From Potamolinea sp. (lineage in GTDB: Bacteria > Cyanobacteriota > Cyanobacteriia > Cyanobacteriales > Coleofasciculaceae): a stretch of 21,554 nt of DNA. Every line of letters begins with the position of its first letter. The stretch's first letter is position 1. Location of the stretch: assembly GCA_042408245.1 (NCBI GenBank), contig JAYFMV010000019.1, positions 67,511-89,064 on the forward strand. The letters run 5' to 3'. Both the position numbers and the translations under genes were made by a program. Below, one piece after another: positions 3,301 to 11,384 of this stretch. A model generated the notes under the pieces. It searched no databases. It had not been told where the DNA came from and saw nothing but the letters and a program-made list of their open reading frames with translations.

Positions 3301-6115
3301 TGAGTGGATAATTCTCTGCCAGAAAAGCTTCAGCATCAGCTTGATCATCAATCAACCCATCCAGCGTAGCCGCTAACAAAGCATCCAAGATTTGTCTGTA
3401 TTGGGGGCCAGGTTTATAACCCAACTGCTTAAGATCATTACCATTAAGCGGTAATTGAACATCCGTCAAAATACTGAAATATTCCCAAATCTTACGTCTT
3501 ACTGCTCTGGGACTCTTCACTGCGAGCAAAATCAAGGTGGATAACTTGTACTGACGCAGCAAGCGGACAATTTCACTCTTGAGCCCAGAAACTGAGAGAA
3601 ACTCTACCACTGACTCTTGTATTTGAGCTAATTGCTGGAGGCGCTCAATACTGTCCGATGGTAGCTGAAGATTTGTGGCCACCTTAGCACGTTCTTCAGG
3701 AGCGAGATAAGCAATTAATACTTCCAGCCGGATTTGCCAGTGTTCCAGAGTTTGCTCAGGGTCAAACCGTCGCAGCCAACGGTCAACTAAACGTACTTGC
3801 CACCATAGCTTTTCATCTAGCTTAAGAGTGAAATGGAGACAACGCAGCGCTCCCAAAGACGCCAGTAACTGCAAAGCTTTTTCCCAGTAAGGAGCCTGTA
3901 AAATATGTTTAAGTTCGGCTTTGAGTCTGGTTTGTAGTGCTGGTGCTTTAGCATTTGCCTTCATTGAGCGCTCGTAGACTCCACTTTCAAGCGCATAGCG
4001 GATATAAGCTTCGGTTTGAGGTTCAATTTGAAATCCCAAACGTACCGCAAAGCGCACAGCACGATAAATCCGGGTTGGGTCTTCGATAAAACTGTTAGCG
4101 TGGAGTACCCGAATTTGACGCGATCGCAAATCCAACAACCCCCCAAAAAAATCCATCAGAGGAAACGCCCAACCAAGGTCAGAAGTTAGTCGGACAGCCA
4201 AAGCATTAATGGTAAAATCTCGTCGATAAAGGTCTTGACGAATCGAACTGGCTTCAACTTCAGGATTAGCCGCAGGGTAGGGATAAAATTCTGTTCGTGC
4301 GGTGGCAATATCTATCCAGAGAGAGCCAAGAATGGGGTCATTGTGCCACAACAAGGCAGCAGTTTGAAAAGCCCCGTGAACGTCTAGACGGACGTTTGGG
4401 TAAATTTTCTGTAGCGCTTGGGCCAGTATTACTCCAGCACCAGTGTCTGCTGAACGATGAAAGCCATCTACTACCAAGTCAATATCTTTTAGAAAGACGT
4501 TATCAGAGCCTTCAACCAGCAATAAGTCTCTTACGGCTCCTCCTACCAAGTAAAGATGCCAGCCCCGTTCCTTGGCTTCCTGGGCGGCTTTGCTAAGCAA
4601 TTCTTTAAGGGGAGGAACCAAACGCTCCCGAAGATTCCGGATTGCTTCCCTAGAGATTGGAGGGGTGGAATCGGGACTGGGGATAGGACAAGAATCGAAT
4701 TGGGTCTCCTGTTGATGCAGTTGTCGCAACACGTCGGTGCGAGTCACAATTCCGACTAATTGCCCATTCTCTAAAACTGGTAGACGCCCAATATCGTATG
4801 TCACCATCAGCCACTGAAGATCTGGTAGAGGTGTCTGAGGAGTAATTGTTTTTAGATTTTTGGTCATGTAGCCTTTGACCGGCGCATGACCAAAACCGTG
4901 ATGTAGGGCTAAATCAATATCTCGTCGCGAGATAACTCCTACAAGTTGGTCGTTTTCGTCTACTACCGAAAGTCCTGAATGACCATACCGCAGCAATATT
5001 CTCTGTGCTTCGCTAATCGTGGTTTGGGGACGAATTGTGCGTACTGGTGAAGACATGAGTTCCCGTGCGGTTAAAGGTTGGGGAATTTGCTCTTTGAGTT
5101 GGTTAACTAGCTGTTCAAGGATTTGTGTGGGATTAACATCTCGGAGTCTCACTGCTGCTGCTTGGGAATGTCCCCCACCACCTAGGGGTTGCAGTAATTC
5201 GTTTAAATTTGTCCCTTCAATACGCGATCGCCCAATCACTGTCAAAAGTGACCCTGTTACCCTCTGAGAAATATTAGACACATTCTCCCGTGCTCCCCCA
5301 TCTCCCCTATCTCCCCCATCTCTCCCATCTCCCCCATCTCCCCCATCTCCCCCATCTCTCCCATCTCCCCCATACTCAGCGGCCAACAGCAGTGCATCAC
5401 TCTCAGTTAACTCAAGCAGTCGTGTCGCCAAACTGGATAACCCTGGTACGTAGTCATGGGTTTTGAGGATTACCCAGGAAACGGTGTAGCCTAAGTGAGT
5501 TTGTGACTGCAAGTTATGTAAGGCTTCGGTCAAAAGTTTTTGTAAGCGAGGAGACAGTCCAGGGTCAACGTATTCGGAGATTTGCCGCACGTTTGCTCCC
5601 TGTAGCATCAACCAAGCTAAAGCAGCAGCGTCTCTTGGTGTCGTCTGGTCAAAGGTCAGTGAACCTGTATCAACATGAATACCCAAGGCCATCACTGTTG
5701 CTTCTGCGATGGTCAAGGAGATTTCGCTTTGCTGCAACTGCTCAACAATTATGGTAGTTGTCGCTCCTACGGGTTCAATGTGAGTATGTGTAGCGGGAAT
5801 ATCTGTATGAATATCTAGGTGATGGTCGTAGATTTCAATTGAGGTTAACTGAGGTAAGTCTAACCACTGGGCTGCTTTTCCCAGGCGATCGCGCGATGAA
5901 GTATCTACTACAATCAGAGACTGAATCTGTTGGGAATTGACAGAGCGGCGTTCAATCAGCGCATACTCATCTCGATGCAATGCCAAAAAATCTCGAACAG
6001 CAGGATGAGCGCCACCAGTGAGAACTAATTTAGCTCCTGGTTTTAGGCACGTCAGCCCCACCGCTGCTCCCAAGGCGTCAAAGTCAGCCGTTGTATGACA
6101 CAAAATCAGATCCAT
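3293..6115 (-). CDS. Multidomain RNA-end enzyme: NrnA-like DHH/DHHA1 phosphoesterase, two CBS domains, and a class II nucleotidyltransferase (CCA-adding / poly(A) polymerase family)
   Basis: DHH motifs [15 protein letters not shown] and IEIYDHH. DHHA1 motif GGGH ([13 protein letters not shown]). A tandem CBS pair follows ([20 protein letters not shown]...[20 protein letters not shown]). The nucleotidyltransferase head carries [17 protein letters not shown] and [11 protein letters not shown] low-complexity [26 protein letters not shown] segment lies between DHH and DHHA1. Confidence 0.85.
5296..5373. repeat. In-frame tandem repeat of the 9-bp unit CCATCTCCC, about 8.5 copies with point variants, inside the DHH-nucleotidyltransferase gene
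   Basis: Direct reading gives ccatctccc ctatctccc ccatctctc ccatctccc ccatctccc ccatctccc ccatctctc ccatctccc. On the coding strand this encodes the (G-G-D/G-R-D)n linker. Because the unit length is a multiple of 3, copy-number changes preserve the reading frame. Confidence 0.9.
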
Positions 6116-6229
6116 CGTTCAAGCTTTGAGTACTTTTACCAACTGTAAGGAATCTGTAAGTCTGCGCTACGCACAGGAAAAAGGTTGTAGGAATACCGCT
6201 TTTCAGGCAGCAGCCTTTAACCATGAAGC

Positions 6230-7684
6230 TCACCCCACCTTTTTAGAGGTGGGGGTGTCTATGCTAAGAAAGGGACTGTTGAGGTTCCACAAATCACAAA
6301 GACAAGCCCAGCTTCTAGGCAAGCGTCCAGAATTTTTACTGGGGCGCTTCTCGTAGTCCTTTCGGCTATCGAGTTTAAGCCAACCTCTCGCGGCGATATT
6401 GTAAGACCCGTTCAGGTCGCAGTTGTAACGCTTCCCGCTAGAGAAAGTAGCTAATGCGTAATTCTTATTGTCGCGTTTCACTTTGCCCGACCCATCATAA
6501 GCAAGCTTTGAGGTATAGGCAGCAATCACGGTGATTGTTTTGCCGCCTAACTCAGCCCATTTACGTTGGGTCAGATCAACGATTAGGCTTTTGAGCCAAC
6601 CATGAAACCGTTGCTTCAGGTTAGATCGTTTCCTGCCTCCCTTTGGCTTCCAGCCTTTGAGATCCTCAAACACAATTGCGTCTGCACGCTCTGTCTGAGC
6701 AATCTGGGTAATGCGTTTAGAAACGGTATGCCCCATCTGTTGATTGATATTGCGACACTTGCGATAGGTGTTTTTGCAGAATCCTAACCCTAGTTTTCCG
6801 CCTTTCCCCATCGTCTTCTTAGCCCGTATCGAAACTGATTTCAGTCGCTTGTCGCGGCGGTCTATGTCTCTTCCAGGATGAATAAATTCACGATGGATTA
6901 CAGTACCGTCACGGCTCACCACTGAAACAGTAGCAGTCGTATTAATTCCTAAATCAACCGCCACAACCACGCCAGCCCCTTTCACCTTCTCAGGGTGGCA
7001 CTCAAAGGGAACCGACAAATGGCAAAATTTGTCGTTCACGATCAGCGAGGGTGATTTGATTTGATTGGTCGAAATCTTATGCCGTTCACGCCACGAAGCG
7101 ATAGGCATGGCGCTCCAAATCCAATCGGTTCCGGTAAACACTTTAATTTCGACTTGCTCGAATCCATGCAGCTTGAAACATTGCCCTTTGTACAGAGCAG
7201 GATAACAACCCGCACTACTATTGAGAATTGGGGGTTTTGCATCTCTACGGTTCCGACTTTGCCCAGACTGCCAATCCCGGTATCGAGTCATGTAGCTACT
7301 CACCTGTCCTGCTGCAAACATGATTGCAGCGCGGCGTAAATAGCTAGGGAACTTGTGAAACGCTCGGTTAATTTGAGGGTATTTCGGATGAGGATTCTTT
7401 GCGGTTCCATGTACCAATCTTTCGACGGCAGGAACGATATTATCACCGCTTAGATTCCCCAAATCAACCCAGTGGGTACAGATCACCGTCACCAAGAACC
7501 GACATAAACGGCGGTATTCCTGCACAGTGTTAAGCAGATATTGTCTCTGCTCACTGCTTGGGGCAATGCGCCACTTGTCGGTTCTGATAGCGCGAGCGGT
7601 AGCGACGTAGGAGCGTCTGGTTTTAGGTGCTGTTTTTTGTCCCATAGTATTTATAGTGTAGCGCATAGAGTAAAACCATGACAA
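6230..7684 (-). CDS. tnpB: TnpB-family RuvC-like protein (IS605 OrfB). The zinc-finger cysteines are absent. The start codon is uncertain: TTG at 7684, or ATG at 7666 or 7645.
   Basis: RuvC-I motif VVAVDLGINTTATV. RuvC-II motif AIVFEDLKG. YTS motif (AAYTSKLAY). RuvC-III motif CDLNGSYNIAARG. Where the two CxxC pairs are expected, the sequence reads LAYDGSG...FSSGKRYNCD. Divergently coupled to tnpA. Confidence 0.7.
   Translation of the reverse strand: MSWFYSMRYTINTMGQKTAPKTRRSYVATARAIRTDKWRIAPSSEQRQYLLNTVQEYRRLCRFLVTVICTHWVDLGNLSGDNIVPAVERLVHGTAKNPHPKYPQINRAFHKFPSYLRRAAIMFAAGQVSSYMTRYRDWQSGQSRNRRDAKPPILNSSAGCYPALYKGQCFKLHGFEQVEIKVFTGTDWIWSAMPIASWRERHKISTNQIKSPSLIVNDKFCHLSVPFECHPEKVKGAGVVVAVDLGINTTATVSVVSRDGTVIHREFIHPGRDIDRRDKRLKSVSIRAKKTMGKGGKLGLGFCKNTYRKCRNINQQMGHTVSKRITQIAQTERADAIVFEDLKGWKPKGGRKRSNLKQRFHGWLKSLIVDLTQRKWAELGGKTITVIAAYTSKLAYDGSGKVKRDNKNYALATFSSGKRYNCDLNGSYNIAARGWLKLDSRKDYEKRPSKNSGRLPRSWACLCDLWNLNSPFLSIDTPTSKKVG
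6231..6257. repeat. Subterminal hairpin at the tnpB-proximal end (right end) of the IS605-type element
   Basis: caCCCCACCT ttttag AGGTGGGGgtg. It overlaps the last codons of tnpB (...TPTSKKVG*) and is the same motif as at 8115-8138. Confidence 0.65.
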
Positions 7685-8097
7685 GAAGCTTAAGAGCTTT
7701 TGCTCACAGCTATTGCAGTATTCAGATTCATATGGTGTTTGTTACAAAGTATCGTCACCCCGTCTTGACTGAGCAGATAGAGTCTGACATCATCCAACTG
7801 TGTCGAGGGATCTGCGAAAAAAACCGTTCTTACCTCGTAGAAGCAAAAGCAGATTTAGAGATGAAAGACCATATCCATTTGTTAATAGACTTTGCGCCTG
7901 ATGTCTCTGTGTCGAAGCTGGCTAACACAATGAAGACCGTTACCAGTCGTGAGATTCGGAAGCGTTTTGCAACTGAACTGAAACCTTATTACTGGAAACC
8001 TGTTTTTTGGAAGCGCGGCTATTGTGCTGTTTCTGGGGGTGGCGCAACGCTTGAGGTTATTAAGTCCTATATCCAATCTCAGGGTAAGGACGACTAG
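7678..8097 (+). CDS. tnpA: IS200/IS605-family Y1 (HUH) transposase TnpA
   Basis: 139 aa. IHMVFVTKYRHPVL. HUH motif HIHLLI. C-terminal catalytic tyrosine context WKRGYCAVSGGG...IKSYIQSQ. The size and motif order match IS200 TnpA. Confidence 0.85.
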   Translation: MTRSLRAFAHSYCSIQIHMVFVTKYRHPVLTEQIESDIIQLCRGICEKNRSYLVEAKADLEMKDHIHLLIDFAPDVSVSKLANTMKTVTSREIRKRFATELKPYYWKPVFWKRGYCAVSGGGATLEVIKSYIQSQGKDD

Positions 8098-8114
8098 ATC
8101 CGGTGTTCGGCTAA

Positions 8115-8138
8115 CCCCCACCTGTTCCGAGGTGGGGG
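8115..8138. repeat. Subterminal hairpin at the tnpA-proximal end (left end) of the IS605-type element
   Basis: CCCCCACCT gttccg AGGTGGGGG, a perfect 9-bp stem. Same motif and orientation as at 6231-6257. Confidence 0.65.
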
Positions 8139-8307
8139 AGTGCGCCTCACTTGAAGTTCAACAAAGCTGGCCTGTAACAGACTTGGTAATTTCAGCAAAA
8201 GCGGGTCAAATTTTGGTAGCGTACTAAACAGGAAAGATTTAATATCAGCCCCGAATTGGGCTGAATATTTTCTATCGATTTTTACGCTTGTCTTGGGAGA
8301 ATAGTAA

Positions 8308-8496
8308 ATGACCATCATATTTCAAATAGCGCTCGCGGCTCTGGTTGCCTTGTCATTCGTCATGGTTGTCGGTGTCCCCGTCGCCTACGCATCCCCTCAA
8401 AACTGGTCTCAATCGAAAAATTTGATTTTCTTGGGTTCTGGGGTTTGGGCTGCTCTTGTCATTCTAGTTGGCGTCTTGAATTTTTTGGTGGTTTAG
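8308..8496 (+). CDS. psbZ: Photosystem II reaction-centre protein Z
   Basis: 62 aa: [62 protein letters not shown]. Two transmembrane helices and the conserved [10 protein letters not shown] / LIFLGSG core. An SD-like GGGAGA sits 9 nt upstream. Confidence 0.9.
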
Positions 8497-8509
8497 AGTG
8501 ACTACTCCT

Positions 8510-8536
8510 GCACTAAATGCTTAGGCATTATAGTGC
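8510..8536. repeat. Near-perfect palindrome centred on the stop codon of the solo tnpB, 14 nt after the psbZ stop
   Basis: GCACTAAATGC ttag GCATTaTAGTGC. Candidate right-end or omega-RNA 3' hairpin of the solo tnpB element, or the psbZ 3' stem-loop, or both. Confidence 0.5.
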
Positions 8537-9786
8537 AGGCTTCCCAGATCGCTATTGGATATTGCTGCCCTACGCCACTTATCTAGGCTCATCACCCCCG
8601 ACAGCCCGACATGAGTGCCAATTTCTTTCCCCCAAAGTCCTTGGGTACTCAGTTGCTCATAACCTCGGTTACAGATTTCCTGTGCCGAGACTACATCTCT
8701 ATCAGCTTCGTAACCACATTCTGGGCAACTATGCCATCGCTCTTTCAGTTCTTTCCTGACTTCAATGCGGCAATTTGGACAAGTCTGAGACGTTCCTTTG
8801 TGGTTGACCTCGGCAACATATACACCTCGCTGTTTACCCACATAAGAAAGGATAGTTCTGAACTGTCCAAAGGCTGCATCAATGGTGTGCTTACCTAAAA
8901 AGCCCTTTGCCATGATTCGGAAATCGATATCTTCCACGAAGATGGTATCAGCCATGTCACACAATTTGTGAGCCAATTTGAACTGATAGTCTTTACGTTT
9001 GAAGGCAATGTGGTTATGTTGACGCTCTACCTTGAGCCTAACTTTCTCATAGTTTTTAGAGCGCTTCTTCTTTTTCGACAGTCTGCGTTGTAGCACTTTC
9101 AGCCGACGATGCTCTGTGGCAAAGAATTTACGCCCTGGCTCAATGAATCCTTCACTGGTCGCTAGATAATTATTCAACCCAACATCCACCCCAATCAAGT
9201 GTCCGTGAGGCATGGGAGCGGGGATAGAGAGATCAGAATGAATGCTGATTACAGCAAACCAGCCCATTGCTTTTTTGAGTATCCTGACTTGTTTGACTAC
9301 AAACCCTTCTGGGATTGGTCGATGCAAGTTGATTTGAACTTTCCCCAGTTTGGGTAACTTGATTTGCCACCCTGTAATTGGATTAGTGGAAAACTGAGGA
9401 AAAAGTATCGACTTCCAGAGTCCATACTTCTTGAATCTCGGAAATCCATAACCCCTTTTCTGGAAAAAGTCCCAGGAATCATGCAATCTTCTAATCGTTG
9501 TTTGCAACACCTGAGAAGGCACTGCTGCTAGTCGCGGAAAGTCCTTTTTAGCTTTGGGGAGATTGTTTTGCTGCTGATGGTATCCAGGAAAAGGATAGTC
9601 AGCACTCATGATGTACTCTGACTCCAAACTACAGCTATCTATTGGACACTTCCTAGAAGCAATCCAGTCCTTTAGTTCCCTGAGTGCATAGTTATACGCA
9701 TGACGACAAGTTTCAAGCCATTCGTTCAGTAACTCGACTTGCTGCTCATCGGGTATTAGGCGGTAGGTGTAGTTGAGAGTTATCAT
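8521..9786 (-). CDS. tnpB: Canonical TnpB (IS605 OrfB / IS1341-like) RNA-guided nuclease family protein. Solo, with no tnpA.
   Basis: N-terminus YRLIPDEQQVELLNEWLETCRHAYNYAL. RuvC-I motif LIGVDVGLNNYLATS. RuvC-II motif TIFVEDIDF. Intact zinc finger TSQTCPNC...WHSCPECG. RuvC-III motif ADRDVVSAQEICNRG. Confidence 0.85.
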   Translation of the reverse strand: MITLNYTYRLIPDEQQVELLNEWLETCRHAYNYALRELKDWIASRKCPIDSCSLESEYIMSADYPFPGYHQQQNNLPKAKKDFPRLAAVPSQVLQTTIRRLHDSWDFFQKRGYGFPRFKKYGLWKSILFPQFSTNPITGWQIKLPKLGKVQINLHRPIPEGFVVKQVRILKKAMGWFAVISIHSDLSIPAPMPHGHLIGVDVGLNNYLATSEGFIEPGRKFFATEHRRLKVLQRRLSKKKKRSKNYEKVRLKVERQHNHIAFKRKDYQFKLAHKLCDMADTIFVEDIDFRIMAKGFLGKHTIDAAFGQFRTILSYVGKQRGVYVAEVNHKGTSQTCPNCRIEVRKELKERWHSCPECGYEADRDVVSAQEICNRGYEQLSTQGLWGKEIGTHVGLSGVMSLDKWRRAAISNSDLGSLHYNA

Positions 9787-9857
9787 GGTTTAATCTTACC
9801 ACTACTAGCAACAATGGTAAATGCTAATTTTACCGGGATTGACCGGATAAAATTAGC

Positions 9858-9954
9858 TTGGGGGGTGGCTGTATCCCACCGCTAAAATATCAAAAGCAAC
9901 GACTTCTTCGTTTTGAATCGCCCTGATTTATAGCGGGGGACTTATCCACCCCCC
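9858..9954. repeat. Palindromic MITE-like element with an 11-bp perfect terminal inverted repeat (TTGGGGGGTGG / CCACCCCCCAA), extended imperfectly to about 25 bp
   Basis: ttggggggtggctgtatcccaccgct ...47 nt... agcgggggacttatccaccccccaa. The centre contains its own small hairpin AACGA-cttct-TCGTT. It lies 70 nt upstream of the solo tnpB start and could be the left end of that element. Confidence 0.5.
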
Positions 9955-10028
9955 AAACCCCCCATTAAGTTAAAAGGGTAATCGGCACCAAAGTTTTTAA
10001 CTTTGCCTGCTTTCGGTACGGAGTCAAC

Positions 10029-10120
10029 CAACAAGCTTAAGGATTGCAACCGCTCAATCCAGTATTCAATAAGTTGGTTGACTGTTTTTTCCAACTTATG
10101 CGTAATCCTTAAGCTTGTTG
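10029..10120. repeat. 17-bp perfect inverted repeat (CAACAAGCTTAAGGATT / AATCCTTAAGCTTGTTG) flanking a 58-nt core that contains the hairpin GTTGG-ttgactgtttttt-CCAAC
   Basis: Direct reading of the sequence. No ORF. Sits in the long spacer between tnpB and ribH. Confidence 0.55.
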
Positions 10121-10573
10121 TATCGAGGTTCGGAAAGCTCAACAAAAATTGATTTTTCCTGCATAAATGCATCCAGAATAATAGTGATATATTATATGCT
10201 ATATTACTCACTGGTCGTTGACCTGCCTGACCGACTAAAGGGCTCTTGAAGTACTAGCGATAGATCAGGGAAAAAACCTCCCCATTTGATAGTCATTGCC
10301 CAAGTCCAAGGGATGTTGTACCAATGAAAATCAAACTGCCTTTGGAAGGAGGGCGGCTGCCAGGGTAACATCATGGGGTGTTGCAGGAGTTCGGGTCACA
10401 GTGCGTGCCTCAAACCTCCGGAGGACGAGTCAGACTCAAAGCTGATTTAGTTCGGAATTCCTAGCAAGAGGAATCCCTAACAGAGCATCGACCTGTGAAA
10501 CTGGAAGCTCCCGCTATAACGGTGCGACCTTGAGCGGTGAGTGCTTCAATATTAACAATTTCACACGACAGAC

Positions 10574-11312: not shown

Positions 11313-11384
11313 GCGGGTATAGCTCAGTGGTAGAGCGTCACCTTGCCAAGGTGAATGTCGCGCGTTCGAATCGCGTTACCCGCT
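11313..11384 (+). tRNA. tRNA-Gly (anticodon GCC)
   Basis: A cloverleaf was folded by hand. Acceptor stem GCGGGTA/TACCCGC. D arm GCTC-AGTGGTA-GAGC. Anticodon stem TCACC/GGTGA with loop TTGCCAA. T arm GCGCG-TTCGAAT-CGCGT. Discriminator T. No encoded CCA. Confidence 0.9.

Follow-up and report, generated by a model that had tools for sequence, protein, structure and literature searches.

A strain-polymorphic solo tnpB element inserted one base past psbZ, with a predicted guide matching the element-free allele

Why does a solo tnpB gene end right beside the 3' end of a photosystem II gene, and does its position there serve any purpose for the host? In the window analyzed here (the whole stretch of 21,554 nucleotides), psbZ and tnpB converge and are separated by only 24 nt (8497-8520), and a near-perfect palindrome, GCACTAAATGC-ttag-GCATTATAGTGC, spans positions 8510-8536, on the stop codon of tnpB. 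A preliminary description of this DNA, whose coordinates for both genes and for the palindrome, as well as the 24-nt spacing, all proved correct, proposed that the insertion had replaced or supplied the 3' stem-loop of psbZ and that the omega-RNA of the element might carry a guide directed against this gene. Having compared the locus with element-free alleles and with related tnpB loci, we assign a probability of roughly 0.87 to the following reading: the segment 8498-9969 is a recently inserted, non-autonomous, IS1341-like element of the IS200/IS605 family, the palindrome is the right-end hairpin of that element, and the guide homes on the empty allele. The features discussed below are collected in Table 1.

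Table 1. Features of the psbZ-tnpB locus, in coordinates of the window
Feature	Position	Strand	Remarks
psbZ (ycf9)	8308-8496	+	62-aa ORF; Pfam Ycf9/PsbZ match, E 5.3e-31
Predicted omega-RNA guide TCTAAACCACCAAAAAATTC, 16-20 nt	8497 down to ~8478	-	sequence immediately 3' of the mapped right end
Complete non-autonomous IS200/IS605-type element (solo tnpB)	8498-9969	-	1,472 bp; no target duplication
Right-end terminal motif GGAGTAGTCAC (transposon-encoded motif)	8498-8508	-	motif of the same form in 77/80 relatives
Predicted omega-RNA scaffold (at least)	8498-8637	-	overlaps tnpB 3' coding region; helices 8610-8574, 8558-8543, 8539-8507
Right-end subterminal imperfect hairpin (the palindrome; helix 3, terminal stem-loop of the predicted omega-RNA scaffold)	8507-8539	-	
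tnpB ORF	8521-9786	-	421 aa; RuvC triad D201/E285/D364; zinc-finger CPNC (from residue 336), CPEC (from residue 354)
Left-end region, including the 5' untranslated part	9787-9969	-	conserved left-end motifs in relatives
TAM TTTAA on the tnpB strand (TTAAA on +)	9970-9974	-	directly 5' of the left end; inferred from the junctions
Native psbZ-downstream long hairpin, then U-run	10021-10090	+	likely original psbZ terminator

Judged by its motifs and alignment, TnpB is a full-length protein with an intact catalytic triad and an intact zinc finger. Its alignment with ISDra2 TnpB (PDB 8bf8/8exa) covers residues 7-371 and has an E value of 1.8e-25. The Pfam domains HTH_OrfB_IS605, OrfB_IS605 and Cas12f1-like_TNB were all detected, and the score against the NCBIfam model guided_TnpB (RNA-guided endonuclease TnpB) is 273 bits, at a cut-off of 100. 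Residues D201, E285 and D364 fall opposite D191, the glutamate of the GTEHL motif and D361 of ISDra2, respectively, the latter two being what we take to be the catalytic residues E278 and D361 of that protein. D191 is an active-site residue of the RuvC domain of ISDra2 TnpB (PMC8612924). No sign of inactivation or truncation was found in the alignment or the motifs, and an exact-sequence look-up of the TnpB protein returned no match.

The boundaries of the element follow from alleles that lack it. An exact look-up of the PsbZ protein, the identical product of which is encoded on 17 contigs, led to ten loci for comparison (L001-L010), which come from metagenomes and one MAG. On nine of these contigs (L001-L009), psbZ is followed directly by ribH, without tnpB. 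The PsbZ protein is the same in filled and empty alleles, and the flanks of the empty alleles are 96-99% identical to the window, or 97-99% beside the junctions. At the junction, the empty alleles read ...GGTGGTTTAGA|TTAAAAGGG... (over a longer stretch, ...GGTGGTTTAGA|TTAAAAGGGTAATCGG...), and the window reads TTTAGA(8497)|GTGACT...ATTAAG(9969)|TTAAAAGGG (over a longer stretch, TTTAGA(8497)|GTGACTACTCC...CCCCATTAAG(9969)|TTAAAAGGG). The blastn alignments of the empty alleles break exactly at 8497/9970, and the filled and empty sequences can be parsed in a single way, TTTAA|element|TCTAAACC, that is, as an insertion of 8498-9969 without duplication. On the tnpB strand, the order is the flank ...CCCTTTTAA, the left end CTTAATGGGGGG..., tnpB, the right end ...GGAGTAGTCAC, and the flank TCTAAACCACCAAAAAATTC... 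The last base of the element is 8498, a single nucleotide separates it from psbZ, and the TTTAA insertion motif is located two bases past the stop codon of psbZ. The tenth locus, L010, has a filled junction identical to that of the window, and its contig breaks within the palindrome.

Near-identical strains differ in whether they carry the solo tnpB element. Loci L001-L007 contain neither this element nor a tnpA element that lies upstream of psbZ, L008 and L009 contain the upstream tnpA element only, and both elements are present in L010 and in the window. Such a distribution of filled and empty sites fits recent mobility of the solo tnpB element.

Related tnpB loci place the right end at the same base. 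A scan of one genome per species yielded 221 relatives, of which 80, nearly all cyanobacterial, were kept; the closest among the 80 kept of 221 are at best 86% identical. Shortly past the ORF, 77 of these 80 loci contain the right-end motif GGAG(G)A(T)GTCAC, after which conservation stops abruptly: the information content is 2.0 bits at -1 and the last five bases, which are fixed by the regular-expression anchor, and about 0.05 bits at each of the next 24 positions, a collapse that is independent of the anchor. Equally independent of the anchor are the blastn end points, given that alignments with the right-end region of the window as the query stop at the relatives' equivalent of 8498. The flank beyond the right end is random in 76 distinct sequences. 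The preliminary description had allowed for a right end well inside 8536, which would have removed the psbZ-proximal sequence from the omega-RNA; the empty-site comparison and the family alignment put the end at 8498 instead. There is no tnpA inside the element, and none within 1.5 kb of tnpB in any of the 80 relatives; the solo tnpB family is therefore non-autonomous, and linkage between tnpB and tnpA (0/80 loci) was discarded. Two of the 80, on short contigs assigned to a Rubrobacter MAG (L034) and a Hyphomicrobiales MAG (L070), are close relatives with 74-78% amino acid identity; their presence in non-cyanobacterial MAGs probably reflects mis-binning or contamination rather than horizontal transfer.

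The palindrome on the tnpB stop codon is real, and it is longer than originally described. It extends by three more pairs to 8507-8539 (CCTGCACTAAATGC / GCATTATAGTGCAGG), for a total of 14 pairs with one bulged base, and its TTAG loop (8521-8524) holds the complement of the TAA stop codon of tnpB (8521-8523). Owing to the bulge, it escaped a gap-free inverted-repeat finder. On both strands, the minimum free energy (MFE) fold and the centroid fold alike contain the hairpin (z = -3.4 on the plus strand and -3.1 on the minus strand, where 1 and 2 of 200 shuffles, respectively, folded as well), and an MFE of -27.9 kcal/mol was obtained for the 81-nt fold that surrounds it. RNAalifold, applied to a 61-sequence alignment of the last 140 nt of relatives, gave a consensus of three helices, the third of which is the palindrome. 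In this helix, 9 of the 11 pairs show compensatory changes on both sides, with as many as 33 sequences contributing to a pair, and 95.4% of the cells across the 61 relatives are paired. For the whole consensus of 30 pairs, the corresponding value is 96.5%, as opposed to 33-45% after displacement of the partners by one to three columns; shuffling lowered the covariation score from 0.466 to 0.187, and none of 500 shuffles reached the former value. Helix 1 includes invariant G-U pairs, and the structure is therefore on the tnpB-sense strand. The structured region overlaps the 3' end of tnpB, and its conservation ends at -1, where the variable flank begins. No omega-RNA family of Rfam was matched at the gathering threshold, nor at E <= 10 over 8400-8800. 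Since the same hairpin is found at the same distance from the end in relatives that reside in unrelated contexts, it belongs to the transposon, and by this comparison the palindrome is a conserved family feature that was not shaped by psbZ. The covariation would fit a role in DNA, as a transposase site, and a role in RNA, as part of a scaffold, alike.

The best-surviving alternative takes the palindrome mainly as a 3'-end element of the host transcript, namely, a bidirectional terminator or a stabilizing stem-loop that was supplied in place of the native psbZ terminator. In the window, a stable hairpin indeed begins 11 nt past the psbZ stop codon, and stem-loops without U-runs can stabilize the 3' ends of transcripts. 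The native structure has been moved away as well: in the empty allele L001 (4243-4312), a long hairpin with a trailing UUUUUU starts 54 nt downstream of the stop codon of psbZ, and the same structure folds there as well as in the window, where it is shifted 1,472 bp away from psbZ. This native hairpin and its U-run are nevertheless intact, so the stem-loop of psbZ was displaced and not, as had been proposed, replaced. The hairpin that now lies next to psbZ is the element's own; no U-run follows the stem on either strand, the plus strand continuing with CUUCCCAGAU and the minus strand with AGUAGUCACU, and a terminator scan of both strands did not call the palindrome. An intrinsic (Rho-independent) terminator was rejected on these grounds. 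The recurrence of the hairpin in relatives at unrelated sites implies that any function at the end of the psbZ transcript is a side effect at best, and we consider this alternative unlikely.

The left end of the element mirrors the right end. Its hairpin has arms at 9931-9945 and 9873-9885, which carry the AAGTCCCCCGCTATAA motif; a further hairpin in the left-end part occupies 9823-9857, and the repeat finder listed inverted repeat I2 in this part. The left-end hairpin (AAGTCCCnCGCT...AGCGnnGGGA) and the right-end hairpin (GAAGCCCnCnCT...GGGAGGATGTCAC), the latter located 9 nt from the element end and containing one bulged base, have the same architecture: they have AAG(T/C)CCC...GGGA in common, and the relatives show conservation and covariation of both. 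Paired subterminal imperfect palindromes are the sites recognized by Y1 transposases in IS200/IS605 elements (PMC10055086), and by analogy, the shared architecture is as expected of paired Y1 transposase sites. Between the TAM and the left-end hairpin, a G-run (GGGGnTTTGGGG, 9949-9963) is conserved in the family, being found also in L012, L013, L018, L040, L043 and others; its possible roles are those of a transposase DNA guide, a promoter element or a purely structural feature.

The sequence that abuts the left end is consistent across the family, too. Among the 51 relatives with a recognizable left-end motif, 41 have TTAA followed by C, 12-39 nt upstream of that motif, and two of the exceptions have TTTAA followed by T. 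A T occupies position -5 in 27 of 40 relatives, upstream of which the sequence is random. The TAM published for ISAam1 TnpB is also TTTAA (PMC12908284).

The spacer between psbZ and ribH holds further features. Directly upstream of ribH in L001, positions 4333-4380 (+) comprise TTAAC, 12 nt and AAGTCCCCCGCTATAA...GAGCGGTGAG, a stretch that mimics the left-end architecture of the solo tnpB family and includes 16 nt identical to positions 9928-9943 (-) of the window; its homologue in the window is 10503-10545 (GGAAGCTCCCGCTATAACGG...). By its sequence, this stretch is possibly a remnant left end or a derivative reduced to the palindrome. The same spacer contains an indel of about 390 bp (10113-10502 in the window), which is present in the window, L002 and L008 and absent from L001. 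A tRNA gene lies downstream of ribH, at 11313-11384 (+) (Rfam tRNA, 71.8 bits).

A second IS200/IS605 element is located just upstream of psbZ, at 6223-8156, as an exact 1,934-bp insertion relative to L001 and L002 (GCCTTTAACC|...|TTCAACAAAG), so that psbZ is sandwiched between two unrelated TnpB-type elements. It encodes a Y1 tnpA (7678-8097, +) and a divergent 484-aa TnpB-like ORF (6230-7684, -), which scores only 66 bits against the NCBIfam guided_TnpB model (cut-off 100) and whose stop is 7 nt away from the end of the element. Its end hairpins, CCCCCACCTC...GGTGGGGG (~8125-8147 and 6236-6260), are unlike the end hairpins of the solo tnpB element, and its flank motifs are different, too; the neighboring tnpA thus cannot be claimed as the cognate transposase.

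How, then, would a solo tnpB element at this site operate? TnpB processes the omega-RNA out of its own mRNA (PMC10278001), and about 16 nt of flanking DNA become its guide (PMC8612924). The resulting complex cuts the donor joint, in which the TAM abuts the right-end flank, and recombination with a filled copy restores the element (PMC10055086); in the case of ISAam1, one strand is cut about 16 nt away from the TAM and the other just past the spacer (PMC12908284). The element at psbZ integrated 3' of TTTAA, two bases past the stop codon of this gene. By analogy, we propose that, as single-stranded DNA, its right-end hairpin would be the kind of structure that is recognized by a Y1 transposase supplied in trans; as RNA, it would close the omega-RNA scaffold as its last stem, the scaffold being processed from the tnpB transcript's 3' part. 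A guide of 16-20 nt would then follow the scaffold, from 8497 downward, in antisense to a single intergenic base and to the stop codon and final 5-6 codons of psbZ.

The suggestion that the omega-RNA guide corresponds to the antisense of the psbZ 3' end is borne out by the mapped right end, which designates 8497-8478 as the predicted guide, and this is so because the element ends one base past psbZ. The predicted guide matches the 19 terminal nucleotides of the psbZ coding sequence, stop codon included, with perfect complementarity, and the 40 nt of the psbZ-side flank that contain its target are 100% identical in all empty alleles. To call it a guide against a photosystem II gene is to misread how it works, since cleavage is licensed only beside a TTTAA TAM, which the empty allele offers: TTTAA followed by the guide target (CCCTTTTAA|TCTAAACC...) matches that allele and not the occupied locus, where GTCAC precedes the target in place of the TAM, so that the occupied locus would not be cut. 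The TnpB/omega-RNA complex would recognize TTTAA plus the guide sequence, a combination confined to the element-free allele (CCCTTTTAA|TCTAAACCACC...); by analogy with ISAam1, empty alleles would be cut in the final codons of psbZ, after which the element would be put back by recombination with a filled copy, which amounts to homing or retention. The complementarity of the guide to the end of psbZ and the displaced native hairpin and U-run would both be by-products of the landing site.

A less favored possibility is that the guide, or a longer read-through RNA from tnpB, acts as a cis-antisense RNA on the psbZ mRNA and modulates the expression of PsbZ and photosystem II. Apart from the perfect complementarity to the 19 terminal nucleotides of the coding sequence, this possibility draws on the terminator scan, which found no terminator-like site on the minus strand from 8497 to 8308, such that read-through could occur. 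TnpB, however, has been characterized as a TAM-dependent DNA nuclease (PMC8612924), and the insertion, polymorphic as it is among near-identical strains, is not a fixed arrangement. Furthermore, psbZ was found within 1.5 kb of tnpB in none of the 80 relatives, and the overlap of other copies with ORF ends fits chance landing; a recurrent tnpB-psbZ association (0/80 loci) was rejected. Five other copies have their end no more than 16 nt from the stop of a convergent ORF of 60 aa or longer (these are ORFs, not confirmed genes), and it is therefore not rare in the family for a guide to overlap an ORF end of this kind. At L065, L055/L077, L081 and L079, the element ends 11-16 nt from the stop of the convergent ORF, and the predicted guides overlap the ORF ends. 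The AT-rich TTTAA target may favor sites just past stop codons. Altogether, we hold antisense control of psbZ by these RNAs to be very unlikely.

Domestication of tnpB into a nuclease-dead, TldR-like RNA-guided repressor of the psbZ 3' region, for which only the juxtaposition to a host gene and the guide complementarity speak, can be dismissed given the full-length protein with an intact RuvC triad and zinc finger, the intact transposon ends and TAM junction, the polymorphic presence of the element, the lack of any fixed host-gene association (psbZ at 0/80 loci) and the absence of a TAM from the occupied locus.

It is likewise improbable that the insertion alters psbZ expression by any of these routes, whether through pairing of the guide or read-through RNA with the psbZ mRNA or through displacement of the terminator, with psbZ transcripts then running antisense into tnpB. 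Were this the case, strains would differ in a photosystem II subunit in a transposon-dependent, polymorphic manner, and tnpB would be damped reciprocally. A regulatory role at psbZ is unsupported. The complete lack of psbZ neighborhoods among the 80 relatives, the five other convergent copies, the intact triad, the displaced native hairpin and the TAM-limited guide jointly argue for incidental insertion over a recruited regulator.

The locus thus holds an ordinary, unnamed, population-polymorphic TnpB element of textbook build, and its apparent guide against psbZ is a consequence of insertion one base past the gene. Its value lies in a clean natural pair of filled and empty sites in closely related uncultured cyanobacteria, with base-exact boundaries, an inferred TTTAA TAM, a scaffold backed by covariation and a predicted target that falls within the 3'-terminal part of a photosystem gene. 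Homing by TnpB in polyploid cyanobacteria could be studied at this locus, and so could any effects of such insertions on convergent host genes.

The element combines the hallmarks of known solo tnpB members of the IS200/IS605 family: a split RuvC D-E-D triad with a zinc finger, insertion at a TAM without target duplication or terminal inverted repeats, and subterminal palindromes at both ends on the same strand. A conserved structured region with three covarying helices in the last 140 nt stops at the right end and gives way to a variable flank, as in omega-RNAs. [quoted passage not shown] Unlike ISDra2, which has its own tnpA, the element described here is a solo element; the TAM is TTTAA rather than TTGAT, and the omega-RNA is unrelated to that of ISDra2 at the level of Rfam, where no match was obtained. 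ISAam1 comes from the cyanobacterium Acaryochloris marina, and its TnpB, at about 369 aa, is shorter than the 421-aa protein encoded here. Compared by published description, the TAM of ISAam1 TnpB, 5'-TTTAA (PMC12908284), is the same as the motif at this locus and across the family. The non-autonomous ISGst elements of Geobacillus stearothermophilus (PMC10055086) share the solo tnpB, the overlapping omega-RNA (predicted in the present case) and the subterminal palindromic ends; they are mobilized in trans by TnpA encoded elsewhere, their donor joint equals the target, and they are retained by cut-and-copy (PMC10055086). They differ in phylum, end sequences and TAM. The sotRNAs of IS1341-type tnpB genes in Halobacterium (cited in PMC10055086) are non-coding RNAs that overlap solo tnpB genes in the sense orientation and derive from their 3' part, like the omega-RNA predicted here; they are archaeal and experimentally detected, whereas ours is a prediction. 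By analogy with these systems, the element at psbZ probably works as a non-autonomous IS200/IS605 tnpB element with an omega-RNA, ISDra2, ISAam1 and the solo ISGst elements being its closest analogues.
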